Part shown: positions 28,656 to 62,900 of the stretch, one piece after another
How the letters are laid out: the number at the start of each line of letters is the position of its first letter
Position numbering within the stretch: the first letter of the stretch is position 1
DNA from: a virus
Lineage: Duplodnaviria; Caudoviricetes
Strand: one strand, 5' to 3'
IMG/VR virus record: IMGVR_UViG_2888055400_000002
Span: 1 to 64,000 of that record
DNA: 64,000 nt
The notes under the pieces: generated by a model
Seen by the model: the letters and a program-made list of their open reading frames with translations, nothing else
Told to the model about the DNA's origin: nothing
The model's database searches: none
Translations under genes and position numbers: made by a program

Positions 28656-28680
28656 GCGTTTTTTATTGGGGAGTTAACGT

Positions 28681-34600: not shown

Positions 34601-36813
34601 AAGGCTTAAAAGATTCAGCGGACCACATGAATAATAAGGATGGAAATAACACAGTTATTAATGGCGTACTGACTGGCATGAAAATCAATAACCTCTTTAA
34701 CAAAGGTAGGAATTTTGTGAGTTGGCTGAGTGGCAATACAGGGGAAAGGGGCAATATCAGCAAAGGACTGAGTAGCCCATTAGGAGGGGTGGGGGGCTCC
34801 ACCAAGGATGCTCTTGCCAATATGGCTGATGTTTCTGCTAGCGTAACCGTGGGCTTTAAGACAGAGAAAGCAGAAGCCTCTTTTCAAACCTCCACGGCGG
34901 TGACAGGAACAATGGAAGCAGGGCGTTCTGTTAACATGCAAGCCCACAAAGGCAGCATCCATGATATTGGAGGTGACATTATCGCCGGTACCAATCCTGT
35001 TTATGCAAATGATGAGCAGAGTGGAAATATCAACTTAGAAGCAGGGAAAGATATCACCTTTGAAAGTGCACAAACCACGCAAAGCACACAAAACCACAAT
35101 GAAAGCGCCTCGGTAAATGTTGGGTATAGCTATGGTACCGGTGGTGCTGGGGGAACAGGCAATGCTTCCTTTAGTCAAGGGGAAGGCTCCAGTGAGGAAG
35201 TTCAACACAAAAACAGCCATCTTAGTGGCACCGGTACTGTTCACACCAACAGTGGAGGAAACACCACATTTGCGGGGGCCGTGGTTTTGGGAGACCATGT
35301 AGAGATGAATGTTGGTGGTGATTTGACCATTACCAGCCGCAGTGATACGGGTCAAACCTCTAACAAGCAGAAATCTGCTTCTGTTGGGTTTGGTGGCAGC
35401 AAAAGTTTTGATGCAGGCTCAACAAGCTTCTCCTTACAAAAGGATCAATCCTCCAGCGATTATCACAGTGTTGTGGAGCAATCAGGCATCAAAGCGGGTG
35501 ATGGCGGTTTTAAGATCAACGTTAAAGATAAAACAACCCTGACTGGGGGGCTGATTGCCAGCACCGCGTCGCCAGACAAAAACAGCCTGACCACAGGAAG
35601 CATCAGTACCAGTGACATCACCAACAGTGCGAGTGCACAAGCCAGCAGCCATGGTTTTAGCCTTTCTGGGAACGACACGATAAAAAACATTGCCAAAAAT
35701 GCTTTAAGTCATGGGAAAGCCAAGGATGCGGCGGACGGGGAAACCAAATCCGCCATCAGTGATGGCACCATCATCTTAACCGATGCAACCAACCAGAGGG
35801 CGATGGGGCAAGATGCTGGACAAATCATTGATGCCCTCAACCGCAACACCGCAGCAGCCCACCAAGCGGTAGTGCCGCTGGATACCACATCGCTTGAGGG
35901 AGCAGTGCATAATCGCCTCGATATGATCAATGATTTATCAGATGAAGGATTTGGATACCTTGGTAAAATTTATAAAATCTCATATGTCAAAGAGCATTTT
36001 GAGGGTGAGGTTTTGCATGATGAAAATGGCAATGTCATCTATGCAACAGATAAAAATGGGATCCCTATAAGAGATAGCTATGGAAGAAAAATACCTCTGT
36101 ATCATTATTTAACGCCAGAGGAAGAGAAGCATTTACAAAAAGGCTCTGATGGCAACCGGCATATGTTCTACAATGGAATTCGCACCTCACCAGATGACGC
36201 TGCGCGCTATGCTGTCCAGTTTGCTGATAATGATCATGATCCCCTTTATTTTACAGTTTTTCCACAAGCTGAAGACAAGCTCGTAGAGTTAGGGGTAGCG
36301 GTTTTTCAGAAGTTCCTAGAAGGTAGAGTTTTTTTTGGATTAACCAATTCAACAAAGAAGTTCCAGAATTTTCTATCTCTCTATGGCAATGATGGAGCGA
36401 TTGTTGATGCGCATAGCCGTGGTAGCTTGACAGTAGGCAATGGAATGCGTGACTTTAAAAAACGTGGCGTCCACGATATAGCAGAAAACACAAGTGTTAA
36501 TCTTTTTGGTCCAGCTTTTAACGCTCAAGACATGGCAAATACGTTATATATCTTAAGTAATGGCAAGCAAACCTATGTGAACTTGGAAAACCATAAATAT
36601 GACTTTGTTGGCGGATGGTTAGCTGGTCACAATCCTTATACCTTTGACAAAGTACCCGCTGGTAATGGTCCTTGGAAAGAGGGGGGGAAAATAATATTTA
36701 GTTATCCCAGTCCCCATGCTTGTTATGGGCATGCGGATAAATCATGTACATCGCGCTATGGTTCACCTCATCGTATAAAAGTTCATTCAACTTCTACAGG
36801 GAGGAAAAAATGA
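28681..36813 (+). CDS. fhaB: Filamentous haemagglutinin / CdiA-like TpsA exoprotein (2710 aa) with an alpha/beta-hydrolase-like C-terminus
   Basis: TPS domain (NPHL, ILNEV, NPNGISCDGCGFIN), FHA repeats, YETR..YGSAYYL..LGDAYFE, C-terminal AHSRGS. Confidence 0.93.
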   Translation: MRYEKRANRAALLGVLVSSTMLKKVFLGGIGFSCLLAPSVVQAQITSDPNAGSAYRPDIVAAPNGVPSIDIVTPNGKGLSHNKYYDFNIGNLGVIFNNHAQEVGQSQLGGIMPGNPHLRFTGSAKVILNEVTSGKRSALNGPAEVFGRQADVIIANPNGISCDGCGFINTPHATLTTGVPEIDASGFLKGFEVRGGDITFGAKGANFFSGKGAVDIVDIVSRTVHFEGAVAGKDIGVSAGTGHFDYASRQMKELTDITGKPEYAIDGSALGALQADQIKLVATEQGVGVRMRHDMAANAGQLQLSADGKISLKNVFGHGGVVLQSKSKSVLAKSVTSKKHIEIAAKKDVTLEMVGADGDLKVEAQGGLLSIAGKATSGGNMELFSLDAMKVSGLGSGADIALEAGGDLKLEGVVLAEGNLKAHAGGDIQAGLLAGGVDMAATGAAGVVVLGAQGDVDLQSVGGRINAANIYGAGDVTLVSYDGLFVSQSILSHQNVAIHAQLNTNAPVHFGQVLAYGKANIEGGAVDFASLMTGGDAVLTVGSLDAGTLMTGLDFVSSQVSPSNPSGALVFYDKGSLSITAQRGIKVEHIISGGNIDLFAGDDIYYDQVIGYGTATLTSVSGGISVENVLSAKGDVRLTANTLDLSNDRSHIYTPQTLFLNADHIYVSGSTLIYGGLDFNSTNVLDIHHARLQAITTEGGTGDILFVAPGVMVDETTSVLAARDFVIKTGRLENSGQLAAGQDLAFSVTGDVTNSKTGLIYVKGNGALKVDGTVLNDFGAIIAEGDLFFTNADGTGKSLSLVNKAGFIQAGGNLNIQTNTLKNEADSTPVITEKTEYSDISFERSKGSDQLSDGMLYHDTRLNSWGKGKLSKWPVLSDTKNFIFKQQIWASKEETYGKTTLKDGTVYKAFTWEYNDNRKGIEQYSWNGDRWREGFLGLSFLNENWSHMTEETVTQEFSHKPTVSGMIESHGNLIINADSIDNHYSIIRAEGNADIHANVLTNLGATAYKNTYMHCNANTDAYCYGYQADGSRDVSLDIANGKYRQTGSEALESVPGLVQAGGTLNLVVDQLHNTAAEGSITGDAHFEAKAVGGDPLGALSGLTGAGALFTPNIALDGTAGVSDGSSLPLPKPQSGGIGGTLPNQNFLYETRAEFLDVGKFYGSAYYLNRIGYKPDREIFFLGDAYFEKQLIEKQMRDLVGQGLGKGSFIPGSDAIEQVKTLLDVGAEYAKAHNLPFGEALSKEQLASLEAPMVIYVRQQIKGMDVYAPVLYIPEKDRASFVSAGALIMGDDVNITSQNTSNSMITNSGRINANHQLHVHGGDLLSQGGHFAAGGDAVLLAEKNIRFEAGRTTVDGVETVLNTEALSTGGNASVIAKQDLTASGVKISTGGDLAMATEQGNLTIGSAETHYHDEQGDATMHHKSALNSGGSTTLVSGKDLNILGSDVQATDNLSLQAKGNVSIDATRNSANSHHGDQTSHVALHNGSHLSSGKETTVLSGKDIHMAASDIDAKGNVVLGAQGEIAIGVREDEMEYHLRANNTKVDMQALISQGSTIKSGGDTTVVAGQDGKKHDLTITGSSVAADGKVGLKASNDIVITNAEDSLHYEMSYHKDGGTFSSSKSVHNKVDAVQVSGSLISGGKGVAIDSGNNTEVVASTLIAGKAGETSGEKTPEDQAKADITIHSGGNIVIKGAQEHFDQQQQSSSSSLLHEESSDKSESHTTTVSSVLGATGNIDMEAQGDAKITASHLLSGQDINVSAEDVMIDGMTDHHSSHSEEHETGFGVGSGKGFVSIYGSEGKTQNEESFEHQGSSLNADGTLNITAKKKDVTIVGSDVEGENVHLTAAHDVNVLVGHNSHKSSSKEEREGFGIQFEKSSSSASVGVGVASAKDTGDEWETTSVQSHITAKKDVQITAGNDVTMQAADVLADRDLNIDAGNNVTLSESHDISNTQETHEKSFAGVTTTVNVGVLDTVQGLKDSADHMNNKDGNNTVINGVLTGMKINNLFNKGRNFVSWLSGNTGERGNISKGLSSPLGGVGGSTKDALANMADVSASVTVGFKTEKAEASFQTSTAVTGTMEAGRSVNMQAHKGSIHDIGGDIIAGTNPVYANDEQSGNINLEAGKDITFESAQTTQSTQNHNESASVNVGYSYGTGGAGGTGNASFSQGEGSSEEVQHKNSHLSGTGTVHTNSGGNTTFAGAVVLGDHVEMNVGGDLTITSRSDTGQTSNKQKSASVGFGGSKSFDAGSTSFSLQKDQSSSDYHSVVEQSGIKAGDGGFKINVKDKTTLTGGLIASTASPDKNSLTTGSISTSDITNSASAQASSHGFSLSGNDTIKNIAKNALSHGKAKDAADGETKSAISDGTIILTDATNQRAMGQDAGQIIDALNRNTAAAHQAVVPLDTTSLEGAVHNRLDMINDLSDEGFGYLGKIYKISYVKEHFEGEVLHDENGNVIYATDKNGIPIRDSYGRKIPLYHYLTPEEEKHLQKGSDGNRHMFYNGIRTSPDDAARYAVQFADNDHDPLYFTVFPQAEDKLVELGVAVFQKFLEGRVFFGLTNSTKKFQNFLSLYGNDGAIVDAHSRGSLTVGNGMRDFKKRGVHDIAENTSVNLFGPAFNAQDMANTLYILSNGKQTYVNLENHKYDFVGGWLAGHNPYTFDKVPAGNGPWKEGGKIIFSYPSPHACYGHADKSCTSRYGSPHRIKVHSTSTGRKK

Positions 36814-37223
36814 AAAAAGCCTTTAAATTATCCAGTGCGATAGTTCTGTTTATTATAGCTGGGTGTAATTTTTTTAAGCCTTCTCCAGGTTACTTATATA
36901 TGTGGGAGAAACCGGGGGCAGATTTTACTGAAGTAGGAAAAGCTTTGTTGGAATGCGGAATGCCAACACCTTATGATGTCGATCCAGAAAATAGAAAGCT
37001 TAGTGTTAATGAGGATGCAACAATTTATGCTTGCATGATCCAAGCAGGATTCCGCTATAAAGATGAAGAGGTGTCGAGGGCTGGAGGATGGTGTTATACA
37101 TTTAAAGAGGAAAACCTACCCATTTGTCGTCCAGGGGCTATCATTCCGCAACGAAGTGTCAAGAAGCGCTTAAATAGCCCTTTTTGTAAAAAATATAAAA
37201 ATGCACCTGAATGCCAACCTTAA
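36810..37223 (+). CDS. Cys-rich lipoprotein, putative cognate immunity protein 1
   Basis: ATGA overlap with the fhaB stop; lipobox IAGC; WEKPGADF..ALLECG..CMIQAGF..C..LPIC..SPFC..EC. Confidence 0.8.
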   Translation: MKKAFKLSSAIVLFIIAGCNFFKPSPGYLYMWEKPGADFTEVGKALLECGMPTPYDVDPENRKLSVNEDATIYACMIQAGFRYKDEEVSRAGGWCYTFKEENLPICRPGAIIPQRSVKKRLNSPFCKKYKNAPECQP

Positions 37224-37460
37224 GTCTTGCTTGTGATGATCAACAATCCGCCATCCTTGCCTTCGCTTGGACTGGCGGGATTGTTTTCTTAATCCACCAT
37301 CTCAATTTAGTCCTACCTGTCTTAAACACAGTATAGATAGAAAATATCAACAGGCTTTTGAGCTTTTTTATCGTAAATAAATCCATTGAAAGAGGGGAAA
37401 AATGAAGAAAACTTTAAAACTATTGAGTTGCATGGCTCTGTTAAGTATCGCTGGATGTGT
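37209..37460 (+). repeat. Conserved inter-cassette repeat (terminator, promoter/RBS, signal peptide start); copies at about 39874-40130 and a partial copy at 45097-45190
   Basis: AACAATCCGCCA...TGGCGGGATTGTT hairpin and downstream sequence near-identical between copies. Confidence 0.85.
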
Positions 37461-37761
37461 TAACTCAATTCCCTCACTTTCTCCAGCAATATGGAGAAAG
37501 AAAATACTTTTAGAATGTGGAGTACCGGATTTTGATAAGGTTGTGGCGCTAGATTTGAATCAATTTGCTAGTATTGAAATGTGTATGGCGCAATCAGGTT
37601 TTCGCCCTAGCTTTCCAATACAAGGTTGGTGTGAAAATCATAAATCCGAAAAGCTTCCCATTTGTCGTCCTGGTGCTGTCATGCCTCAACGAAGTGTTGA
37701 GAGACGTTTAAAGAGCCCTTATTGTAAAAAGCATCCAGAACAATATGAATGTAAACCTTAA
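37402..37761 (+). CDS. Orphan Cys-rich lipoprotein, putative immunity protein 2
   Basis: Lipobox IAGC; LLECG..CMAQSGF..WC..LPICRPG..SPYC. Confidence 0.78.
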   Translation: MKKTLKLLSCMALLSIAGCVNSIPSLSPAIWRKKILLECGVPDFDKVVALDLNQFASIEMCMAQSGFRPSFPIQGWCENHKSEKLPICRPGAVMPQRSVERRLKSPYCKKHPEQYECKP

Positions 37762-39481
37762 CCACAATGAAAGCGCCTCGGTAAATGTTGGGTATAGCTA
37801 TGGTACCGGTGGTGCTGGGGGAACAGGCAATGCTTCCTTTAGTCAAGGGGAAGGCTCCAGTGAAGAAGTTCACCAGAAAAACGCCCATATTAGTGGCACG
37901 GGTACTGTTCACACCAACAGTGGAGGAAACACGACACTTGCAGGGGCCGTGGTTTCTGGAGACCATGTAGAAATGGAGGTTGGGGGTGATTTGACCATTA
38001 CCAGCCGCAGTGATACGGGTCAAACCTCTAACAAGCAGAAATCAGCTTCTGTTGGTTTTGGTGGCAGCAAAAGTTTTGATGCAGGCTCAACAAGCTTCTC
38101 CTTACAAAAGGATCAATCCTCTAGTGATTATCACAGTGTTGTGGAGCAATCAGGCATCAAAGCGGGTGATGGCGGTTTTAAGATCAACGTTAAAGATAAA
38201 ACAACCCTGACCGGAGGACTGATTGCGAGCACCGCGTCGCCAGAAAAAAACAGCCTGACCACAGGAAGCATCAGTACCAGTGACATCACCAACAGTGCGA
38301 GTGCACAAGCCAGCAGCCATGGGGTTAGCGTTTCTGGGAACGACACGATAAAAAACATTGCCAAAAATGCTTTAAGTCATGGGAAAGCCAAGGATGCGGC
38401 GGACGGGGAAACCAAATCCGCCATCAGTGATGGCACCATCATCCTGACAGGTGCAACCAACCAGAGGGCGATGGGGCAAGATGCTGGACAAATCATTGAT
38501 GCCCTCAACCGCAACACCGCAGCAGCCCATCAGGCAGTAGTGCCGCTGGATGCCACATCACTTGAGGGGGTGATACATAATCGCCTCAATATGATCAATG
38601 ATTTATCAGATGAAGGATTTGGATACCTTGGTAAAATTTATAAAATCTCATATGTCAAAGAGCATTTTGAGGGTGAGGTTTTGCATGATGAAAATGGCAA
38701 TGTCATCTATGCAACAGATAAAAATGGGATCCCTATAAGAGATAGCTATGGAAGAAAAATACCTCTGTATCATTATTTAACGCCAGAGGAAGAGAAGCAT
38801 TTACAAAAAGGCTCTGATGGCAACCGGCATATGTTCTACAATGGAATTCGCACCTCACCAGATGACGCTGCGCGCTATGCTGTCCAGTTTGCTGATAATG
38901 ATCATGATCCCCTTTATTTTACAGTTTTTCCACAAGCTGAAGACAAGCTCGTAGAGTTAGGGGTAGCGGTTTTTCAGAAGTTCCTAGAAGGTAGAGTTTT
39001 TTTTGGATTAACCAATTCAACAAAGAAGTTCCAGAATTTTCTATCTCTCTATGGCAATGATGGAGCGATTGTTGATGCGCATAGCCGTGGTAGCTTGACA
39101 GTAGGCAATGGAATGCGTGACTTTAAAAAACGTGGCGTCCACGATATAGCAGAAAACACAAGTGTTAATCTTTTTGGTCCAGCTTTTAACGCTCAAGACA
39201 TGGCAAATACGTTATATATCTTAAGTAATGGCAAGCAAACCTATGTGAACTTGGAAAACCATAAATATGACTTTGTTGGCGGATGGTTAGCTGGTCACAA
39301 TCCTTATACCTTTGACAAAGTACCCGCTGGTAATGGTCCTTGGAAAGAGGGGGGGAAAATAATATTTAGTTATCCCAGTCCCCATGCTTGTTATGGGCAT
39401 GCAGATGAAAGGTGTCGACAAGCTTACGGAGCCTCTCATCGTATAAAAGTTCATTCAACTTATACAGGGAGGAAAAAATGA
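37760..39481 (+). pseudogene. Orphan fhaB 3' fragment (toxin module 2), no TPS domain or signal peptide
   Basis: Near-identical to fhaB 35092-36813; starts at the lipoprotein-2 stop codon. Confidence 0.85.
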
Positions 39482-39888
39482 AAAAAGCCTTTAAATTATT
39501 AACTGTAATAGTTTTGTTAATTATTGCTGGATGTGAGGATTTTTTCAAGCCTCCTCTAGGTAACGTATATGGGTGGGAGAAGCCAGGTGCAGATTTTACT
39601 GAAGTAGGAAAGGCATTGTTAGAATGCGGAATGCCGAGTCCTGAATATCTTGATAGAGAAAATAGGCGCTTGAGCTATAATGATAGTGCAACAATTTATG
39701 CTTGCATGATCCAAGCAGGATTCCGTGATAAACTTAAAAAAGAGGTGGGAACTTGGTGTGAGAATTTTAAAGCCGAAAATCTCCCCATATGTCGACCAGG
39801 CGCTGTCATCCCAAAACGAAGTGTCAAAAAGCGCTTGAATAGCCCGTTTTGTAAAAGAAGTCCTGTGCAGCCTGAATGCCAACCTTAA
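39478..39888 (+). CDS. Cys-rich lipoprotein, putative immunity protein 3
   Basis: ATGA overlap; lipobox IAGC; same Cys pattern with divergent variable segments. Confidence 0.8.
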   Translation: MKKAFKLLTVIVLLIIAGCEDFFKPPLGNVYGWEKPGADFTEVGKALLECGMPSPEYLDRENRRLSYNDSATIYACMIQAGFRDKLKKEVGTWCENFKAENLPICRPGAVIPKRSVKKRLNSPFCKRSPVQPECQP

Positions 39889-40070
39889 GTCTTGCTGCTG
39901 ATCACAATCAACAATCCGCCATCCTTGCCTTTGCTTGGACTGGCGGAATTGTTTCCTTAATTCACCATCTCAATTTAGTCCTAACCTGTCTTAAACACAG
40001 TATAGACAGAAAATATCAACAGGCTTTTGAGCTTTTTTATCGTAAATAAATCCATTGAAAGAGGGGAAAA

Positions 40071-40550
40071 ATGAAGAAAACTTTAAAACTATTGAGTTGC
40101 ATGGCTCTGTTAAGTACAGCTGGATGTCAGTTGGGAACTCCTCCCCCATCAACGTTGGCTTTATGGGAAAAGTCTGGAACAGATCGGGCTGTAATCGAAC
40201 AATCACTTTTAAAATGTGGCTGGAAACCAGTTTATGCTTCTTCTAGTGATATGAATGCCTATGCAAGTGAATTTGCCTCAGTTTATGAGTGCATGAAAAA
40301 AGCAGGTTATCGATATAAATTGCAGGATTCAAAGGGGATTTATTTTACACAACCTCCGAAAAGTGACTCGTTCCTAACCGATCTCATGATAGCTGGATAT
40401 CAGAAATTTATGGACAATGATACTTTTGGTGTCAGCAATACGACCAGAAAAGAACGGGCTATGATAGCGCATTTTGAAAATGAAAGAAAACGTCAACAAA
40501 CGAAAAAATCTTTGCAAAAGCGATCATCAAAGCGTCCTACTCATTCTTAA
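40071..40550 (+). CDS. Orphan lipoprotein, divergent putative immunity protein 4
   Basis: Lipobox TAGC; WEKSG..LLKCG..CMKKAGYRY; unrelated C-terminus. Confidence 0.7.
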   Translation: MKKTLKLLSCMALLSTAGCQLGTPPPSTLALWEKSGTDRAVIEQSLLKCGWKPVYASSSDMNAYASEFASVYECMKKAGYRYKLQDSKGIYFTQPPKSDSFLTDLMIAGYQKFMDNDTFGVSNTTRKERAMIAHFENERKRQQTKKSLQKRSSKRPTHS

Positions 40551-40606
40551 AGAGAGAGTTGGACAAAAAGCACGAATGATGAAGGGAGTCAAAATAGTGC
40601 CCTTCT

Positions 40607-43600
40607 TATTCAAGCGGGTGGCACGTTGAATTTGGTGGTCGATCAACTCCGTAACACGGCAGCGGAAGGTTCGATTACAGGAGATGCGCATTTTGAGGCA
40701 AAAGCCGTTGGGGGGATCAGCACCGGGGGTGATCTTGCCATGGCCACAGAACAAGGTGATTTGACGATAGGATCAGCAGAAACCCATTACCATGATGAAC
40801 AGGGTGATGCCACCATGCATCATAAATCTGCGTTAAACTCTGGAGGATCGACGACACTTCTTTCTGGAAAAGATTTGAATATCTTAGGCTCTGATGTTCA
40901 ATCCCATGATGATTTGAACTTAAAAGCTGAGAGGAATATTTCGATTGATGCCACGCGCAACAGTGCCAATAGCCATCACGGGGATCAAACCTCTCATGTT
41001 GCCTTACACAATGGCTCTCATTTAAGTTCTGGAAAAGAGACCACGGTTCTCTCTGGAAAAGATATTCATATGGCTGCTTCCGATATAGATGCCAAGGGCA
41101 ATGTTGTTCTTGGTGCACAAGGGGAGATAGCGATAGGGGTGAGAGAAGATGAAATGGAGTATCATCTTCGCGCCAACAACACCAAAGTCGATATGCAAGC
41201 CTCGATTTCCTAGGGATCAACAATAAAATCTGGAGGCGATACCACTGTCGTTGCAGGGCAGGATGGAAAGAAGCATGATCTTACCATCACAGGTAGTTCT
41301 GTTGCGGCTGATGGCAAGGTGGGGCTGAAAGCCAGCAATGATATTGTGATCACCAATGCAGAGGATAGCTTACATTATGAGATGTCGTACCATAAAGACG
41401 GGGGAACATTTAGTAGCAGCAAATCTGAGCATAACAAGATTGATGCTACCCAAGTTTCCGGTTCACTCATATCTGGGGGCAAAGGCGTTGCCATTGACTC
41501 AGGAAACAACACGGAAGTTGTAGCCTCGACGCTCATAGCCGGTAAGGCAGAGGAAGCATCAGGAGAGAAAACACCAGAAGATCAGAAACAAGCGGATATT
41601 ACCATTCACTCTGGTGGAAATATTGTTATCAAAGGCGCCCAAGAACATTTTGATCAGCAACAGCAATCCTCGTCAAGTAGCCTTTTGCACGAGGAATCTT
41701 CAGATAAATCTGAATCGCACACCACAACGGTTTCCTCTGTTCTGGGGGCAACGGGCAACATTATCACACAATCAGACAAAGAGACCACAATCACTGCTTC
41801 TCATATGTTTGCAAATGAAGATATTCATGTGACGGGAGAAAATGTGACGATTGATGGCATGACGGACCACCATAGCAGCCATTCACAGACCCATGAAACA
41901 GGTTTTGGTGTGGGATCAGGCAAGGACTTTGTATCGATCTACGGGAGTGAGGGAAAGACAGAAAATGAAGAAAGTTTTGAGCATCAAGGCTCTTCTCTCA
42001 ATGGAAAAAATATCACCATCACGGCCACCAAAAAAGATGTGAATGTGGTGGGCTCTGATTTTACTGCGCAAGAAAATATTCATGTTTCGGCAGCCCATGA
42101 TATCAATGTTTCACCTGGTCACAATAGCCATAAGTCAAACAGCCAAGAAGAGCGGGAAGGTTTTGGCTTTCAGTTTGAAAAGAGCAAAAGTGGTGCCTCT
42201 GTCGGTGTCGGGATTGCCAGCGCGAAAGACACAGGGGACCAATGGGAAAATACCAATACACCATCTAATTTTAAAGCGGGCAAAGATGTACAGTTTAGTG
42301 CCGATCATGATGTGAATTTACAAGCGACAAATGTTTTGGCAAATCGTGATGTCAACATTGATGCTGGCAATACTATCACACTATCAGAAAGCTATGATAC
42401 CTCTAACGCAAAAGAAAAGCACGAAAAGTCTTTTGCTGGTGTGACAGGCTCTGTCAATGTTGGGGCTCTTGGTACCGTACAGGGCATTAAAGATGCAGTA
42501 AAGCAAGCTAAAAATAAGGATGACAAACACCATATTGCCAATGGTCTTATTGCTGGTCTAAAAGGCTATAATCTCTTTACCAAAGGCAAAAGTTTTTTCA
42601 ATTTTCTGACTGGTAACACAGGAGAAAGGGGCAACACCGCAAGAGCTCAGGGCAATGTAGCAGGAAATTTGGCTGGCTCTACCAAGGATGCTCTTGCCAA
42701 TATGGCTGATGCTTCTGCGAGTGTGACTGTGGGCTTTAAGACAGAGAAAGCGGAAGCCTCTTCTCAAACCTCCACGGCGGTAACAGGAACAATGGAAGCA
42801 GGGCGTTCTGTTAACATGCAAGCCCACAAAGGCAGTATTCATGGTGTTGGAGCTGACATTATCGCCGGTACCAATCCAGTCTACGCATTAAACAATGATG
42901 AGCAGAGTGGAAATATCACCTTGGAAGCAGGAAAAGATATTACCTTTGAAAGTGCACAAAACACGCAAAGCACACAAAACCACAATGAAAGCGCCTCGGT
43001 AAATGTTGGGTATAGCTATGGTACCGGTGGTGCTGGGGGAACAGGCAATGCTTCCTTTAGTCAAGGGGAAGGCTCCAGTGAGGAAGTTCAACACAAAAAC
43101 AGCCATCTTATTGGCACAGGCACTGTTCACACCAACAGTGGAGGAAACACCACACTTGCGGGGGCAGAGGTTTCTGGAGACCATGTAGAGATGAATGTTG
43201 GGGGAGATTTGACCATTACCAGCCGCAGTGATACGGGTCAAACCTCTAACAAGCAGAAATCTGCTTCTGTTGGGTTTGGTGAGAGCAAAAGTTTTGATGC
43301 AGGCTCAACAAGCTTCTCCTTACAAAAGGATCAATCCTCTAGTGATTATCACAGTGTTGTGGAGCAATCAGGCATCAAAGCGGGTGATGGCGGTTTTAAG
43401 ATCAACGTTAAAGATAAAACAACACTGACTGGGGGGCTGATTGCGAGCACCGCGTCGCCAGACAAAAACAGCCTGACCACAGGAAGCATCAGTACCAGTG
43501 ACATCACCAACAGTGCCCATGCTAAAGCCAGTAGCCATGGGGTTAATGTTTCTGGTGGCGGTGTTTTGCAACAGGGGAAATATGGCGTCATAAAAAACGT

Positions 43601-44717
43601 GGCTAAAAATGCTTTAAGTCATGGAAAAGCCAAGGATGCAGCGGAAGGGGAAACCAAATCTGCTATCAGTGATGGGACTATCATCCTTACTGATACAACT
43701 GGACAGAGGGCGATGGGGCAAGATGCTGGACAAATCATTGATGCCCTCAACCGCAACACCGCAGCAGCCCACCAGGCTGTAGCACCGCTGGATGTAGCAC
43801 TGCTTGAGGGAGCCGTGCATAATCGCTTAGACATGATCAATGATTTATCGGATGAAGGATTTGAAATCGCTGGTCAGGGCTTTGTAAACATGTTTATCAA
43901 AGAGCATTATCTGGCTACCGTTGAGCACGATGAAAATGGCAATGTGATCTATGCAAAAGATGAAAATGGGAAATATATAAAAGACAGCCATGGAAACCCA
44001 CAGCCACAATATCATTATTTAACGCCTGAGGAACAGCAGAATTTACAAAAAGGTTCTGATGGCAAGGTTCATGTTTTCCTCAATGGTATTCTTACAACAC
44101 CCGATGAAGCAGCCCATAATGCGGTTCAGTTGGTTGATAACAAGAATGATCCACACTATTTTCTGATGTTTCCCCATAGCGATTCGCTCTTGGTAGAAGG
44201 GGTTATTGCAGGGTATCAGTATTTTTTAGAAGGTAATTTGGGTGGTCTGACCAATTCGGCAAAGAAGTACCAGAATCTGTTGTATAGCTTTGGCAATAAA
44301 GGATTGCATGTTGATGCCCATAGCCGCGGCAGTATGACAGCGGGTAATGGATCGTATAATTTAGCAAAGCAGGGTGTTCACGGTATAGCAAAGGAAACAA
44401 CGATTAATTTTTTTGGACCAGCTTTTAATACTCAAGACATGGCAGATACGTTATATATCTTAAGTGATGGCAAGCAGGATTATGTTAATTTGGAAAATCA
44501 TAAATATGACTTTGTTGGTGTAAAGATTGGCAAAAATCCTTATACCTTTGAACAAATACCCCCTGGAAGTGGTCCCTGGAAAGAAGCAGGGCAAATATTT
44601 AAGGGCTACCCCAGTGTCCATGCTTGTTATGGTCATCCGAGTGATGCTTGTACAAAGTTCTATGGTTTGCCTAATCGTACGCCAATTTATTCAAAATATT
44701 CAGGGAGGAAAAAATGA
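40607..44717 (+). pseudogene. Orphan fhaB remnant (toxin module 3) with an internal deletion, a CAG-to-TAG stop at 41211 and a divergent C-terminal domain
   Basis: Matches fhaB from about 31855, jumps to about 32835; ATTTCC-TAG-GGATCA versus ATTTCC-CAG-GGATCA; ORF 41319-44717 diverges after DLSDEGF. Confidence 0.85.
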
Positions 44718-55508: not shown

Positions 55509-57778
55509 TTAACAATAATAATTCTCTTGTAGTTGGTCGTGCATTAGGTGCTACGAGCAATCAAGTTAAAAAAATATCAGAACTTGGTCCAAACTTTACC
55601 CATCTTGGCTCTGTTTCAGAATATGCGGCTAATCGAGAGCGCCTATCAGAACTTGGTCCAAATTTTACCTACCTTGGTTCTGTTTCAGAATACGCCAATC
55701 CTTCTTATGAAGATACACCACAGCCTCCAGAAATCACGCAAAGTGAAGCTTTTTGGAATTCTTTAAAGCATGGTCTCAGTTTTAATTTAGATGACGAAGT
55801 TGAAGCAATTACAGCGTTAGGACGCGATCCTGATGATGGGTTGACACCGTTTGCTTTTCTCAATGAGTTGGCACCGATTGCTTTTGTCAATGGGATGAAA
55901 AAATATTGGTTATCTGGTGATAAGAAATATGAAGATAAGTATGACAAAGAAGTCAAGAAACGGCGTGATTATCAACGTAGGATGAGCGATACGCATTATT
56001 GGACGTCTTTGGGTGGAAATATATTAGGGTCTGCTTTGCCTTCACTTGCAACTTTAGGAGCAGGGGCGGGAGCATCACTAGCGGGGCGAGTAGCGCCTCA
56101 TGCTACTTCAAAATTAGGTCAACTATTCTCGAGAGCCGTTCCAACATCGGTGGGCAGAGTAGGGAAATATGTAGGTGAGAAAGCAAGCCCATTTTTAGGT
56201 ATTACGAACAAAACAACATTTCCGCATTTGCTTAAAGTAGGAGCGTTATCTGGTGCGTTACATGGGGCAGGTGAAGGTGAAGGGGCAGGAAATACGCTTA
56301 TAAATACAGCACTTGGTGCAGGTTTTGGAGTGGGAGGGGCAGCGGTTGGAAGTGTTGTTGGTTCTGGGCTTGGTTCAATTGGGGGATTGGCAGCAAGAGC
56401 TGTTTCACCCTCTCATGTAAATGGTGTTCCAAAAGAAACATTAAGAGAAATTACTAAGCATTTAAGCAATGATACTGCTGAAGCACTTGGGAAGTCTTTT
56501 CATAAGGCAGCAAGCCCTGATGATTATGTTGTAGATCACAGCCCTATCTTACAGGATCTTGTTTTTGAAATTTCAAGAAAAAATCCGGATGCTTCTCTTG
56601 ATTTAATCCAAAGAGCTGGCGCGAGAGCGAAGGGAGGAGGAGAACGTATTCATCAGGCTGCTGATGAACATTTTGTTCCTCGTCAAGATGTTGTAAGTTT
56701 AAAAGATGATCTTATTGCAAGCAAGAAAGCAGCATCAGAATCCCTTTATGAAATAGCAAAAAAGACACCGATAGGGGAAAAATATTATGGTGCTCTTAAT
56801 GAATTGATGGAGCGCCCCTATTTCAAAAGAGCTTATTATCAAGCGTTAACGAAATTCAAAAATGATGGGAACAAAATTGTTCCGTTTTCTTCTCAAAAGT
56901 TTAGTCTTCTCAAAGATAAACCGAACATGGCGGTTCTCCATAATACTAAGGAGAAAATCGATGACATGATACAGTTAGAACGAAACCAAGGGAAAAAAAG
57001 CAACATTCGTACCTTATACGGTATCCAGAAAAAATTATTAGAGATTATGGATGATGTATCGTCTGAATATACGAAGGGACGGGCGATCTATCATCGATAC
57101 AGTTCACATGTAGATGCTATGTCTGAGGGGGAAAAAATTGTTAGCAAGAAGATTAATAAAGATAAATTCAGTAAAATTTTGGGTGGATTATCAGAAGGCG
57201 AACAAGAATACTTAAAAAAAGGAGCAAGAGCAGAACTTCTCGAAAGTATGACGCAAACAACAGATCACGTTTCGAATGCGAAGCAAATTTTTGATACAGA
57301 TGATCTTTATGAGAGATTTGCAAAGACTTTTGGGTCCGATAAAGCTGCTGCTGTTAAGAAAGCTGTCGATAGAGAAGCGAATTATGCTGATCTTTATAAC
57401 AGAATACCAAATCGTGTAGCGGATAAAGAGATAGGTTTTTCGCATAATGTAACCCCGCCTACAAGTGTAGCAGATGCAGCTATGCAAGCAGGAAAAGCTA
57501 CTCTGAAAGCGTCGTACATTCCCTTTAAAACAGCAGCTTTGAAAGAGCGTCAACGCATAGAAAAGGACGTCGTCAAGTTGTTAACAGGGGGAACAAATTT
57601 TTCCAATGATGAAATCGTCAATATCCTTCAAAGAATGGTGCAGGCACAACATAAAGGATATGTGACTAAAGAGTGGGTGAAACAAGTTTCTGCTGCTTTA
57701 TTTGGAGGGGGAGGAAAAGCATTTGCGGGACAATTTAATATGCTGAGTACACCAAGTCAGAAGAGGGTATATAACTAA
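55505..57778 (+). CDS. Putative large DNA ejection protein 3
   Basis: 757 aa with Gly/Ala-rich hydrophobic segments (GALSGALHGAGEG). Confidence 0.6.
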   Translation: MINNNNSLVVGRALGATSNQVKKISELGPNFTHLGSVSEYAANRERLSELGPNFTYLGSVSEYANPSYEDTPQPPEITQSEAFWNSLKHGLSFNLDDEVEAITALGRDPDDGLTPFAFLNELAPIAFVNGMKKYWLSGDKKYEDKYDKEVKKRRDYQRRMSDTHYWTSLGGNILGSALPSLATLGAGAGASLAGRVAPHATSKLGQLFSRAVPTSVGRVGKYVGEKASPFLGITNKTTFPHLLKVGALSGALHGAGEGEGAGNTLINTALGAGFGVGGAAVGSVVGSGLGSIGGLAARAVSPSHVNGVPKETLREITKHLSNDTAEALGKSFHKAASPDDYVVDHSPILQDLVFEISRKNPDASLDLIQRAGARAKGGGERIHQAADEHFVPRQDVVSLKDDLIASKKAASESLYEIAKKTPIGEKYYGALNELMERPYFKRAYYQALTKFKNDGNKIVPFSSQKFSLLKDKPNMAVLHNTKEKIDDMIQLERNQGKKSNIRTLYGIQKKLLEIMDDVSSEYTKGRAIYHRYSSHVDAMSEGEKIVSKKINKDKFSKILGGLSEGEQEYLKKGARAELLESMTQTTDHVSNAKQIFDTDDLYERFAKTFGSDKAAAVKKAVDREANYADLYNRIPNRVADKEIGFSHNVTPPTSVADAAMQAGKATLKASYIPFKTAALKERQRIEKDVVKLLTGGTNFSNDEIVNILQRMVQAQHKGYVTKEWVKQVSAALFGGGGKAFAGQFNMLSTPSQKRVYN

Positions 57779-58440
57779 TGACCCGTTATAGTCTTTCGAT
57801 AGAACAAGCGATACGTGAAGCGGCATCACGCTATGGCTTGCCTGAAAGTTATTTGTACCGTGTTGCACAGATTGAAAGTGGTGGTAATCCGAATGCAAGA
57901 AACCCGCGTTCCTCTGCTGGTGGACTGTATCAGTTTATAGACAGCACAGCCAAGCAATATGGCTTGCAGGATAGGTTTGATCCTATACAAGCAGCGGATG
58001 CGATGGGGCGGCTCACACGGGATAATCGCAATCATTTAAGCCGTGTTTTGGGAAGAGCACCTAGCGAAGCAGAATTATATTTAGCCCATCAGCAAGGAGC
58101 AGGGGGAGCAGCGCGTCTTCTTCAAAACCCGCAAGCCCATGCAGCACAAATTGTTGGCAGCAATGCCGTAGGTTTGAATGGGGGCAATGCTGGTATGCGG
58201 GCTGGTGATTTTGTTAATCATGTCTTGCAAATGTACGGAGGAAAGCAGCCTTATCGTGCAAACCCTGTTGGTAGAGGGAGTGTACCTCCACAGGGTAACA
58301 GGGATAACGTGCTTGCCTTTTTAAGAGCTTTGCTTTCTTCACAACAGCAAGAAGCCTCAGAAGAAGACCAGAGTGAAGAAGACAATCCTCTTCTGTCACA
58401 ATTTATGAGAGCCTTTTACGGACCCTTTTATAGGATTTAG
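57778..58440 (+). CDS. Lytic transglycosylase (SLT domain), virion-associated
   Basis: AQIESGGNPNA..SSAGGLYQFIDSTA..YLAHQQG. Confidence 0.88.
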   Translation: MTRYSLSIEQAIREAASRYGLPESYLYRVAQIESGGNPNARNPRSSAGGLYQFIDSTAKQYGLQDRFDPIQAADAMGRLTRDNRNHLSRVLGRAPSEAELYLAHQQGAGGAARLLQNPQAHAAQIVGSNAVGLNGGNAGMRAGDFVNHVLQMYGGKQPYRANPVGRGSVPPQGNRDNVLAFLRALLSSQQQEASEEDQSEEDNPLLSQFMRAFYGPFYRI

Positions 58441-58451
58441 GATTCACGAAC

Positions 58452-59477
58452 ATGTCGACGATTTATGATTGGTCGCTTAGAGCGTCTGAAAACACGCATG
58501 CCGATAATTTGGTTAATTGGTCAGAGGGGCAATTGCCAAGTACGATCAATAACAGTGCGCGTGGAATGATGCAGCGCATACGGGAGTGTCTATCGGATAG
58601 GGGCGGTTCGATAGAAAGCACGTTTCATATTGATCACAACCAACAAACAACGGTTATTACGCTTCAAACCAAATCACAATTTACAGAATACAAGAATGAT
58701 ATAGTGGTGCGCTTTAAAGCGAAGGGTAAGAATGTTGGTGCAACCACGGTTGCTTTCAACAGCTTGCCTCAGAAGCAAGTTTACAAAGCAAAAGATGGTG
58801 GCGGCGCGGTTTTGTTAGAGGGGGGAGAGATACAAAATGGCTGTATTTATACGCTTGCTTATGATGAGGTTCTTTCAGGATGGCAGCTTCTCAATCCAAC
58901 ACCTACACAGTCACAATTAGGTTTGGCAAATAATCCTTATCCCTCAGGCTTTATAGGGACGTTTGCGATGCAGGCATTGCCTTATGGTTGGTTGGTTTGC
59001 GATGGGAGTGCTTATTCCCGAAGCCTTTATAGTGATTTGTTTGCGGCGATAGGAACGGTTTGGGGGAGCGGTGATGGCTATCGAACATTTAATGTACCGG
59101 ATTTGCGAGGGATGTTTTTACGGGGGCTTGATGATGGTCGCAATATTGATACTGGGCGTCACTTTGCAAGTGTGCAAGAGGATTTTATACAGTCGCATAA
59201 GCACGGAGGACATATGATTTCCGTTTCTCATATGGATGAAACCCAAGAGAATTTTTGGCATGGTAATGCAACGATCTTATGGGGGCATTCGCTTAATGAC
59301 GCGCAAAAAACGAACGTTAGTGGCAGTTCAGGGATAAGAGAAGAGGACATTCGGAGCTATGATATCTTGGCATTGCCTTCTGAGCAATCTCAAGGACATC
59401 GTTTGACGGAATTAAGAGATGGTGAAAATGAAACGCGCCCGATCAATGTCTCTGTTGTTTTTGCGATAAAGACCTGA
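58452..59477 (+). CDS. Phage tail-collar domain protein A
   Basis: PSGFI..PYGWLVCDGS..YSDLFAAIGT.WG.GDG..FNVPDLRGMFLRG; C-terminal ETRPINVS. Confidence 0.9.
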   Translation: MSTIYDWSLRASENTHADNLVNWSEGQLPSTINNSARGMMQRIRECLSDRGGSIESTFHIDHNQQTTVITLQTKSQFTEYKNDIVVRFKAKGKNVGATTVAFNSLPQKQVYKAKDGGGAVLLEGGEIQNGCIYTLAYDEVLSGWQLLNPTPTQSQLGLANNPYPSGFIGTFAMQALPYGWLVCDGSAYSRSLYSDLFAAIGTVWGSGDGYRTFNVPDLRGMFLRGLDDGRNIDTGRHFASVQEDFIQSHKHGGHMISVSHMDETQENFWHGNATILWGHSLNDAQKTNVSGSSGIREEDIRSYDILALPSEQSQGHRLTELRDGENETRPINVSVVFAIKT

Positions 59478-59484
59478 GGGGAAC

Positions 59485-60795
59485 ATGTCGACGATTTATG
59501 ATTGGTCTTTGACGGCGTCTGAGAATGCGGGCGCCGATAGCGTTATTAATTGGTCAGAGGGTCAAGCGCCCCATACAGTAAATAACAGTGCACGTGGCAT
59601 GATGCAGCGTTATCGGGAGTATTTATCAGAGAGTGGAGGAGCGATTGAGAGTGTTGTTGTTCATTTGGAGCATGAACAGACAACCATTCGCTTAACAAGC
59701 AAAACAGAATTTAGAGAGTACAAGAATGATAGAGTTGTACGCTTTAGATCAAATGGCTGGAACATTGGAGCAACCACGGTTTCGGTTAATTTATTAGAAG
59801 GTAAACCCGTTTACAAGGCGACGCAAACAGGTCTTGTCCCCCTTACAGGATCGGAAATCCAACCCAACTGTATTTATACGCTCGTGTATGATGAAGCGGT
59901 TTCAGGTTGGCAGTTGCTCAATCCAACGATCAAAACCGTTCCCTTTAGGCGTTTGCCTACGGGTTTTATAGGCAGCTTTGCCATGGAGATATTACCGGAT
60001 GGGTGGTTGTTGTGTGATGGGCGTGCGTATTCACGGGACAGTTACCGTGATCTGTTTGCAACGATAGGAACTTTATGGGGGGAAGGAGATGGGGCAACAA
60101 CGTTTCAGGTTCCTGATCTGAGAGGGATGTTTTTACGGGGCTATGATTATTTAGGGAATGTGGATAGAGAGCGAAGTTTTGCAAGCACGCAACAATGTAG
60201 CTTGAGGGATCATGAACATAACCTTGGGATTACGGCTTCAACCGGAAATTCTTCGAGACGTAGGCGTGATCTTTCATCTGTTGAAATTTCACATAGACAA
60301 CGTCGAAGTGTGGATCCAACGAGTGAGTGTTTACGGAAGCATTCCAAATGGGATGATGTTGAGGAGTGTATCCTCTCATTAGAGAGTGAGGAAGAGAAAC
60401 AAGCGCGTAAGGCAGAAAATTTACGGCGTAGAAATAAAATGAAAGGCTGTTTTGCTCCCAATTTGTGGGGGTATGAGGATCCTGATTGTTGGGGAGGGTC
60501 TTCTTCTGTTTATGATGAGGAATGTGTTGGCTTAACAGGGGATGCCTTAGAGAGATGTAATAGGGGCTTTGACGAAGCAACACAAACACCTCCATCAACT
60601 CCTACTAGAAGAAAAACACCCCACACCTCTCATCCTTTTTTTATCGCACATGATCAAAGATTTGTTCCTTATCTTATTTCCCAAGGCTTTGGAGAAGATC
60701 TAGGGGAGCATGATCATATTCTCATGACGGATAGTTATGGTGGGGCAGAAACGCGTCCACGCAATGTGTCAGTAGTGTTTGGAATTAAGACGTGA
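59485..60795 (+). CDS. Phage tail-collar domain protein B with an Arg/Cys-rich insert
   Basis: Paralog of 58452-59477 with a longer variable region. Confidence 0.9.
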   Translation: MSTIYDWSLTASENAGADSVINWSEGQAPHTVNNSARGMMQRYREYLSESGGAIESVVVHLEHEQTTIRLTSKTEFREYKNDRVVRFRSNGWNIGATTVSVNLLEGKPVYKATQTGLVPLTGSEIQPNCIYTLVYDEAVSGWQLLNPTIKTVPFRRLPTGFIGSFAMEILPDGWLLCDGRAYSRDSYRDLFATIGTLWGEGDGATTFQVPDLRGMFLRGYDYLGNVDRERSFASTQQCSLRDHEHNLGITASTGNSSRRRRDLSSVEISHRQRRSVDPTSECLRKHSKWDDVEECILSLESEEEKQARKAENLRRRNKMKGCFAPNLWGYEDPDCWGGSSSVYDEECVGLTGDALERCNRGFDEATQTPPSTPTRRKTPHTSHPFFIAHDQRFVPYLISQGFGEDLGEHDHILMTDSYGGAETRPRNVSVVFGIKT

Positions 60796-60804
60796 GGTTA
60801 TGAA

Positions 60805-61026
60805 ATGTTATCGAAGCCCTTTGCGATATCAGAAATAAGCGACCCGTCTCAAGTACGGGTTGTTTTGTATTCTGGCGAGCGTTTTGTGCATGCCCCGCTT
60901 AATGGAATTTTAGAATTACTCAAGGCGGATTTGAAGAGAGAATTTGAAAATAGGATCCGCTCTCTAGAGGAGCGCATACAAGTTTTAAGCACAGAGTTAG
61001 AAGAACTGAAAGAGTGTGGATTTTAA
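60805..61026 (+). CDS. Small coiled-coil phage protein
   Basis: 73-aa ORF with RBS; C-terminal heptad repeats. Confidence 0.6.
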   Translation: MLSKPFAISEISDPSQVRVVLYSGERFVHAPLNGILELLKADLKREFENRIRSLEERIQVLSTELEELKECGF

Positions 61027-61055
61027 AGATCAGTTGAAATTGAGGGAGCAAGACC

Positions 61056-62900
61056 ATGGCGATACCCTATCATACGCATGAGTATCAAGTACCAGCAGCA
61101 ACGAAAGAAGAGATCATAGAGGGGACCTCTATGGATACGGTTGTTGTTCCTAAGTTGTTAGGGACGGCATCTCTTTATGCCTATGAAGCCTTTGCAACGG
61201 CAGAGCAGGGTGTCCATGCACAGCAAGCCTCGGAACGTGCAACGGCATTAGCTACGACAGCCAAGCAAACAGCAGATACAGCGAAAAGAGTTGCGGATGA
61301 GGCGAAGGAGTTGGTTGATGCATCTGCGGTCACGGCAGGGCAAGCCGTTCAAACAGTGAATGCGGTTGTTACAACAGCTAACGAGGCAAAGGCAACAGCA
61401 GAGCAGGCATTGGCAGCAGGACGTGATGCAAAAAGCAGTGCAGAGACAGCGGTTAACAACTCTCAGAGTGCGAATGAAGCAGCTTCCAGAGCAGAGACAG
61501 AGGCAACAGCAGCGAAGACCACAGCAGAAGAAGCAAAGCAGTTATCAGGAGAAGCGAAGAGCCAATCAGAGAATGCAGAGGCGTTAGCACAAGCAGCTAA
61601 AAGCGCATCAGACGAAGCGAAGCAAGGAATAGAAACAGCCAAGGCAGAAGTTTCAGGAGCAGTCTCTATTGCAAGGGAAGCCAAACAAGCGTCTGAAGGA
61701 GCAGAGAGAGGTGCCAATGAAGCAAAGCAGATGGCGACAGATGCTAAGGGGACAGCGGATGAGGTAAAATCAACGGCAGAAGCAGTTAAGAGCTTAGTAG
61801 ATAAAGCAGTCTCTGATGTGCAAGATGTGAAGAATTCTGTTGCAACAGCGGTAGAAAGTTCCAATGAAGCGAAGGCAACGGCAGAAGAGGCAAAGGATGT
61901 AGCAGAGAAGGGTAAAGGAACTTCAGAAACAGCGATTTCTACAGCTAATGCAGCAAAGGTTACATCTGAAGATGCCAAACAAAAGGCAGAAGCAGCAGTT
62001 TCTAAAGCGGATCAGGCGCAACAGGTTGCGGATGAAGCGAGGCGAGTAGCCAATGAAATGAAAGCAGTAGCAGAGCAGGCGGTGAGTGTTGAGAGACAAG
62101 CAGTGCATGCACTTGATGAGTCTGTTAAGGGATTGGTCGAAGATGCCAAACAGAAGGCAGAAACAGCACAGACGTTAGCGCAAGAAGCGAAAGCAACAGC
62201 CGGTGAGGCAAAAGAAGTTGCAGATCAGGCTAAGAGTTCATCCGAAACAGCAACAGCGAGCAGTACGGAAGCTCTCACAACAGCGAATGGTGCAAAAAGC
62301 ATAGCAGAGACAGCGTCTAGAACAGCTGGTGAGGCAAAGGAAACAGCGTCTAGTGCGCTCTCTGTAGCCAATGATCTTAAGCAATCGGTTGATCATGTCA
62401 AGAATACAGCGGAAGCAGCAAAAAGGACGGCAGAAGGGGCAGAACAGAAGGCATTAACAGTAGAAACGCTAGCTTCTGAAGCGAAGATGAAATCTGTCGA
62501 AGCCAAACAATCTGTAGAAGAAGTGAAGAGCACGGCAGATTTGGCAAAGAATATAGCTGATGAAGCGAAGCAATCCGGTGATGCAGCGCTCAGTGCAGCA
62601 AATGATGCGAAGAGTGCGTCAACGGCAGCTTCAAGCTTGATTGATACTGTAAAGCAAACAGCAGATGAAGCAAAGGCAGTAGCAGAGCAGGCAAAGGGTG
62701 CATCAGAAACGGCGACAGTTACAGCAAATGCATCACAAGAGACGGCATCAACGGCAAAAGCCTTGGCAACTGAAGCGAAACAAACCGCCGATGATGCCAA
62801 GCAAGCCGTTGGCGATGTGAAAGTTATAGCAGAAACAGCGGTAACCACGTACAACACATTGATTTATAATGATAATTTGCTGTTTTGCATGTTGAATTAA
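61056..62900 (+). pseudogene. Ala-rich coiled-coil tail/head fibre protein, truncated at about 62850 by an integrase element
   Basis: A-x-E-A-K-x-x heptad repeats stop abruptly; the last 16 codons are element sequence homologous to the reverse complement of about 46997-47046. Confidence 0.8.

Follow-up and report, generated by a model that had tools for sequence, protein, structure and literature searches.

Conserved furin-type basic motifs in the tip insert of a tail-collar fibre from a predicted Bartonella vinsonii prophage

A furin site predicted in a protein of a bacterium or phage usually rests on a pattern match in one sequence. Here, we describe a canonical furin-type pattern that selection has kept in 43 distinct sequences of a predicted receptor-binding protein of the virion. 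The protein is a tail fibre encoded by an open reading frame (ORF) at positions 59485-60795 (+ strand, 1,311 bp, 436 amino acids (aa); coding part translated, 59485-60792) of a 64,000-nt stretch of viral DNA, hereafter the window, which is part of an 82-kb provirus record (IMG/VR IMGVR_UViG_2888055400_000002). Judged from its sequence, the ORF encodes a T4 gp12-like tail-collar fibre of a podovirus-like Bartonella vinsonii prophage. Two basic motifs of the form R-X-[KR]-R stand close together in an insert at the tip of this fibre, where a convertase of the animal host or vector might cut them.

In Bartonella vinsonii subsp. vinsonii CIP 103738, one contig encodes the fibre with 100% identity over 436 aa. 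A phage tail collar domain at aa 160-216 (59962-60132, +) scores 75 bits against Pfam PF07484 (gathering cut-off 24), and the protein matches the tail-collar and tail-fibre families of PHROG; no NCBIfam family was matched by the fibre. It is the 'long' paralogue, the last gene in a tandem collar array, an assignment that draws on the ORF, Pfam, PHROG and RNA run X9 (below). In a set of 77 Bartonella genome loci with 129 collar ORFs (39 long forms and 90 other paralogues), the long form is the last gene in 33 of 33 collar arrays. The gene directly upstream (58452-59477, +, 341 aa) encodes a paralogue whose tip insert is unrelated and which lacks a basic motif (Pfam, alignment, motif scan). Its alignment to the fibre is confined to aa 1-245 (60% identity) and the final 18 residues, and it contains no R-X-[KR]-R, as the original prediction had said of this neighbour.

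The tip insert, 160-odd residues between two H-x-H motifs, lies wholly on the + strand, as do all features given for the fibre. The first H-x-H motif (aa 243-245, 60211-60219; H243 in 42/42 and H245 in 41/42 aligned sequences) opens the insert and is followed by a Ser-rich polar linker (aa 246-277, 60220-60315; 75% polar or charged residues) that holds both basic motifs. Site 1 is R-R-R-R (aa 258-261, 60256-60267), followed by D-L-S-S, with Arg at columns 258 and 261 in 42/42 sequences. Site 2 is R-Q-R-R (aa 271-274, 60295-60306), followed by S-V, with Arg at 271 in 39/42 and at 274 in 38/42. By translation, a 13-residue connecting peptide (aa 262-274, 60268-60306) would be freed if both sites were cut. 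Translation places in frame, at aa 258-261 and 271-274, the two motifs that the original prediction had given as SRRRR|DL (60256) and HRQRR|SV (60295).

The consensus of furin-type proprotein convertases calls for Arg at both P4 and P1 and for Lys or Arg at P2, and leaves P3 free. In the set of 77 loci, at least one R-X-[KR]-R is found at the same spot in 39/39 long paralogues and none in the 90 other collar paralogues (29,281 aa). On viral contigs the site is present in 11/11 long forms, and the 66 other collar ORFs there (22,855 aa) have three motifs, all near the N-terminus and none in the tip. Motif, position, conservation and restriction to one paralogue are thus read directly from the sequences. 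A site census anchored on the last basic residue drew on 55 loci, with 43 distinct inserts and 79 sites. Arg occupies P4 in 77 sites (Lys in 2) and P1 in 78 (Lys in 1); P2 is Lys in 61 and Arg in 18, and P3 is Arg in 30, Lys in 28 and another residue in 21. On the far side of the bond, P1' is Asp (34), Ser (25), Ala (13) or another residue (7), and P2' is Val (37), Ile (18), Leu (17) or another residue (7). The six-position pattern from P4 to P2' occurs twice per protein in most inserts: a strict site is found at least once in each of the 43 and twice in 33, and degenerate copies retain Arg at P4 and P1. Relatives differ in how long the spacer between the sites is, and three sequences have a single site. 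Unlike columns 258 and 261, nearby basic columns of the 42-sequence alignment swap Lys and Arg freely (column 241, K29/R12; column 357, R19/K11).

All six Arg codons are used for the P4 residue of site 1 (CGA 9, CGT 6, CGC 6, AGA 5, AGG 5 and CGG 2, in 33 distinct sequences), which argues for selection at the protein level. Four codons are used for its P1 Arg, codon choice varies at site 2 as well, and third codon positions vary throughout the motif region. Synonymous divergence (dS) across the fibre family is ~1, and the linker (aa 246-277) has the highest ratio of nonsynonymous to synonymous substitution (dN/dS) of the gene, 0.40 versus 0.21-0.26 elsewhere. Since the linker is the least constrained segment, the Arg columns are islands of conservation within it. 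The number of motifs in the window alone is not striking, with four R-X-[KR]-R in 14,595 ORF residues versus 2.8 expected, two of the four being the pair 13 residues apart described here. It is their conservation across relatives that puts these motifs beyond chance. At the per-residue rate of the window ORFs, ~5.5 motifs would be expected in the 90 insert-free paralogues, and the count of 0 suggests that R-X-[KR]-R may be avoided in them.

Downstream of the linker, translation bears out the three Cys pairs (C-x12-C, C-x12-C and C-x10-C) and the Pro/Thr linker of the original prediction. Pair 1 (C282/C295, 12 residues between, 60328-60369) lies on adjacent predicted helices, and pair 2 (C322/C335, 12 between, 60448-60489) forms a loop of the C-F-..-L-W-G type in translation and alignments. 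Both belong to an extra module of ~65 residues found in 8/38 rows of the family alignment. Pair 3 (C347/C358, 10 between, 60523-60558) spans a loop, E-E-C-x-G-L-x-G-D-A-L-x-x-C, that is invariant in the 42-sequence alignment, with C347, G349, L350, G352 and C358 each in 42/42 sequences. The Pro/Thr-rich linker (aa 366-381, 60580-60627) follows by translation. The second H-x-H motif (aa 409-411, 60709-60717; both His invariant in the 30-sequence insert alignment) closes the insert, and the protein ends in an E-T-R-P-x-N strand (aa 422-436, 60748-60792) that alignments show to be common to the whole collar family. The tip from aa 275 to 405 has a net charge of -7.

The original prediction had named conservation of the basic motifs versus variability of the Cys loops as a check and had proposed a disulfide-looped domain; its interpretation is supported in part. 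The motifs are kept while their surroundings vary, but the third loop is as invariant as they are and only the first two loops are variable. Likewise, the C-x10-C loop is present in 42/42 sequences, but the C-x12-C loops belong to a module carried by a minority, which weakens the reading of the tip as a disulfide-looped domain. Several relatives that carry this module have a dibasic pair (K-R, R-R or R-K) immediately ahead of the Cys loop of the C-F-..-L-W-G type. This pair is a possible third processing site, which is degenerate in the window protein.

A profile of the insert, built from the 30-sequence alignment and searched against 1.84 billion representative proteins, matched 11 proteins. 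The insert itself was covered by Bartonella-type sequences only, and the matches from outside Bartonella covered only its last 30-40 positions, which are common to all collar proteins. The ESM Atlas gave weak leads only (0.85-0.86), to phage tail clusters. The full-length insert (E 1e-40 or better) is present in 38 of 90 species-level Bartonella genomes, with fragments in three more. The expectation that the feature would be restricted to phages of host-associated bacteria agrees with this distribution: the insert was found only in Bartonella, and the motifs were absent both from the 90 paralogues and from the tips of the 66 collar ORFs on viral contigs. Separately, one Bartonella genome has at three loci a long paralogue in two pieces, an N-terminal ORF of 244 aa and a separate 149-aa frame with the whole insert; the split is identical in the three copies, so the broken copy has multiplied.

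Structures were modelled with AlphaFold2 as a full-length monomer from 38 sequences (mean predicted local distance difference test score, pLDDT, 46.6) and as the insert only (mean 62.1). In the insert-only model, a low-confidence monomer, pLDDT is <50 at aa 243-271, a range with all of site 1 and with R271, which opens site 2, and in the full-length model, also a low-confidence monomer, the linker is at ~27. The linker with both sites is predicted to be flexible. The insert-only model has three helices at aa 278-319 (pLDDT 75-92), which place C282 and C295 on neighbouring helices, and a further helix at aa 353-366 (pLDDT 75-89). A Foldseek search of the insert model against the PDB returned no match (best E 2.3).

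Bartonella genomes were searched for enzymes that cleave at basic or dibasic positions. Subtilisin/kexin peptidases of family S8 (PF00082) occur in 2/90 Bartonella species genomes, neither of which has the insert, and in 0 of the 38 insert-bearing ones. Searches of Bartonella genomes detected no convertase P-domain (PF01483, 0/3 genomes), no omptin (PF01278, 0/3) and no caspase-like C14 peptidase (PF00656, 0/5). No protease domain was detected among the virion-module proteins scanned, several of which have no family assignment at all.

An index of sequencing runs listed no RNA run for this sequence, and expression was assessed by mapping the raw reads of three RNA runs labelled as this species to 57778-62900. 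Run X9 placed 25,205 reads on this region, 23,669 of them at least 99% alike, and the fibre gene appears to be transcribed in this run. Depth over the gene was 86-230 for first mates on the + strand and 115-702 for those on the - strand (for example, 112 versus 702 at 60172-60342), an excess of antisense first mates that fits RNA from the + strand. Run X10 has reads of a relative 90-95% alike, and 61 reads join 58573 to 59615, skipping 1,041 bases and with 8 other letters between. The X10 strain thus seems to have one chimeric collar gene in place of the two in the window, through recombination between the paralogues.

We tentatively favour, as possible though short of probable, a reading in which a furin-type convertase of the mammalian host or arthropod vector would cut the fibre after virion release. 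The protease, the cleavage and its effect are what we infer. A virion leaving its lysed bacterium would enter the milieu of a mammal or blood-feeding vector, where a convertase of the host would cleave the fibre after R261 and again after R274. The double cut would excise the 13-residue connecting peptide, and the tip with its C-x10-C loop would become a second chain that the C-terminal strand keeps on the fibre. Cutting would then change receptor binding. The stronger form of this idea, in which a convertase of the animal host or vector is required to arm the fibre, in a spike-like priming known from animal viruses but here in a phage, so that phage infection or phage-mediated gene flow among Bartonella would be on only inside the animal or vector, we regard as improbable. 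Several points weigh against cleavage by a host or vector enzyme. Since the fibre assembles inside the bacterial cell, in its cytoplasm, and is directed at a bacterium, any advantage of host cleavage is speculative. The original prediction had likened the region to a eukaryote-processed propeptide, a likeness that we do not uphold: the insert has no eukaryotic relative among the 1.84 billion representatives and the ESM Atlas, and no fold match. Predicted disorder of the linker is weak evidence, as it comes from low-confidence monomers of a presumably trimeric protein. Just one strict site is present in 10/43 inserts, and DNA carry-over may have contributed to run X9. Conservation that is specific for Arg could equally suit phosphate or sulphate binding or salt bridges. 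Bartonella also has peptidases of its own: an oligopeptidase-B-like S9A peptidase in 3/3 genomes, closest to oligopeptidase B (522 bits to NF007511, short of its equivalog cut-off, 1313), and, in 5/5 genomes, three S1 peptidases of HtrA size.

The last two points lead to the rival readings. Almost as likely as the favoured reading is that the motifs are left uncut and that their Arg are working residues of a receptor-binding tip, making bidentate contacts with phosphates of Bartonella lipopolysaccharide or another acidic receptor, forming salt bridges to the acidic D-E-E-C tip, or building a basic patch, of glycosaminoglycan type, through which particles stay attached to host tissue. Arg binds phosphate and sulphate better than Lys. 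The insert occupies the position of the receptor-binding head of T4 gp12, the tip downstream of the motifs is acidic (net charge -7), and tips differ between the fibre paralogues as receptor-binding parts should. An uncut role fits less well with a six-position P4-P2' pattern that recurs twice, with a P3 that is free while P4 (Arg 77/79) and P1 (Arg 78/79) are held, and with Ser-rich flanks in a segment modelled as flexible, which suit a linear motif read by an enzyme. Because the spacer varies in length and one copy may be missing, a linear motif fits better than a folded binding site.

If the motifs are read by an enzyme, that enzyme could also belong to the bacterium or the phage and cut during fibre maturation or adsorption, with no eukaryotic enzyme involved. 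Proteolytic maturation is common among phage tail proteins, and the S9A (3/3 genomes) and HtrA-type S1 (5/5) peptidases keep this reading among the candidates, as would an unrecognised phage protease among the several virion-module proteins of no known family. The specificities do not suit, however, since oligopeptidase B cuts short peptides only and HtrA prefers an aliphatic P1; the peptidase classes that might suit were missing (S8 from all 38 insert-bearing genomes, omptins from 3/3 and C14 from 5/5 genomes searched), and the virion-module proteins scanned show no protease domain. We rank this reading third, as unlikely but still a serious rival. Far less credible still is an origin of the motifs by chance or as neutral runs of basic residues, or from a conserved element of the DNA or RNA, for instance a site at which fibre cassettes recombine. 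The window count is near expectation (4 versus 2.8), and the fibre genes do recombine, the X10 junction (58573-59615) joining both paralogues. Against this stand Arg in 42/42 sequences at two columns of the fastest-evolving segment and the absence of motifs from 90 paralogues, which largely refute it, and a DNA-level element is ruled out by codon variety (six Arg codons at P4, variable third positions). The probability that is left goes to readings beyond these four.

Other functional motifs were considered and rejected by their usual consensus. A Tat (twin-arginine translocation) signal does not agree with an internal motif whose twin Arg are not adjacent in most sequences, and in a nuclear localisation signal of the classical or bipartite kind, Lys would be acceptable at P1 and P4. 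The register does not match a PKA or Akt kinase site, and the spacing does not match a trimerisation motif.

Should the fibre be cut as we tentatively propose, the phage would sense the animal environment of its bacterium through a convertase of the host or vector. This would bear on where and when genes are exchanged in Bartonella; two papers (PMC5496983, PMC3610622) give gene transfer derived from phages a central part in the adaptation of this genus. If the sites are not cut, the motifs would mark key contact residues of a new receptor-binding tip.

The fibre gene lies inside, and near the end of, a virion module at 47-63 kb with the order head-adaptor-ejection-fibre. This module encodes a major capsid protein of PF13252, an SU10-type adaptor, ejection proteins, an internal virion protein and an SLT transglycosylase, together with several proteins without a recognised family. 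Its fibre end consists of the collar genes 58452-59477 and 59485-60795, a small coiled-coil gene and an alanine-zipper fibre gene. Several junctions at 61550-62239 in the alanine-zipper gene in run X10 skip 63, 524, 43 and other numbers of bases, which indicates repeat-length variation of this fibre between strains. In runs X9 and X11 many reads enter unrelated sequence at 62850-62852 and 62897-62899 (in X9, for example, 348 and 475 reads), and alternative junctions at 62850-62900 appear to be present in these samples. Upstream of the integrase (45705-46871) that borders the virion module is a two-partner secretion (TPS) island at 26889-44717, with an FhaC/ShlB-type transporter (26889-28655) and an FhaB-like protein of 2,710 aa (28681-36813) that combines a TPS domain with haemagglutinin repeats; two more ORFs of the island, at 37745-39481 and 41319-44717, also have haemagglutinin repeats. 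A gene at 23693-26074 (-) encodes an enzyme like those of Type ISP restriction-modification, with domains for an Mrr nuclease, a helicase and the ISP coupler.

Among proteins of known structure, T4 gp12 (PDB 1ocy, 1pdi, 5iv5) is the closest solved relative by family profile (E 1.2e-7, 1.5e-7 and 9.5e-7, respectively). Like gp12, the fibre has a collar domain, then a variable head and then the C-terminal E-T-R-P-x-N strand, which is found in all long forms and paralogues and which, taken alone, aligns weakly to the gp12 C-terminus (5.3 bits). Because it lies between the collar and this strand, the insert is at the position of the gp12 receptor-binding head; the likeness is one of position only, as the tip insert and the gp12 head have no sequence or fold similarity. 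The H-x-H motifs at aa 243-245 and 409-411 recall those of gp12, where H-x-H serves as a metal ligand. No basic processing motifs are known from T4 gp12. In furin-activated bacterial toxins and animal-virus spikes, R-X-K/R-R is placed in an exposed loop, and the nicked chains stay associated while activity changes. Those proteins act on eukaryotic cells, whereas the expected target of the fibre is the Bartonella surface.

Within the genus, the gene transfer agent of Bartonella (BaGTA) has a single tail-collar gene, bgtC (BH13960), in the available text of PMC5496983, and its tail fibre gene is given as 972 bp in that of PMC3610622. The N-terminal and collar architecture of bgtC is the same as that of the window fibre. 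Forms of bgtC size (~320-330 aa) are without the insert and without the motifs, whereas the window gene is 1,311 bp long and stands in a tandem array of a podovirus-like module; the fibre is probably not the BaGTA fibre bgtC. A 326-aa collar copy is found on another contig of the same genome as the fibre. In searches of the literature on Bartonella prophage tail fibres and tail collars and on furin in phage, we found no report of these motifs among the papers listed.

A precedent is Wolbachia phage WO, for which the available text of PMC5062602 reports predicted furin sites in 25% of genes of the eukaryotic association module (EAM) versus 11% of core genes, describes such sites preceding a latrotoxin-CTD, and proposes that host furin cuts them. 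Both cases, as far as that text describes phage WO, concern a phage-encoded protein of an animal-associated alphaproteobacterium with predicted R-X-K/R-R sites. The sites of phage WO, as presented there, are found outside the virion core, in accessory proteins of large size that are homologous to eukaryotic ones (latrotoxin-CTD). The window fibre is not of the EAM type, as it has no eukaryotic homology and its gene lies inside the virion module. Action of host furin on phage proteins has thus already been proposed for phage WO, and what is new here is a conserved furin-type motif in a core virion fibre, a putative receptor-binding protein in which position-specific conservation in 43 sequences supports the sites.

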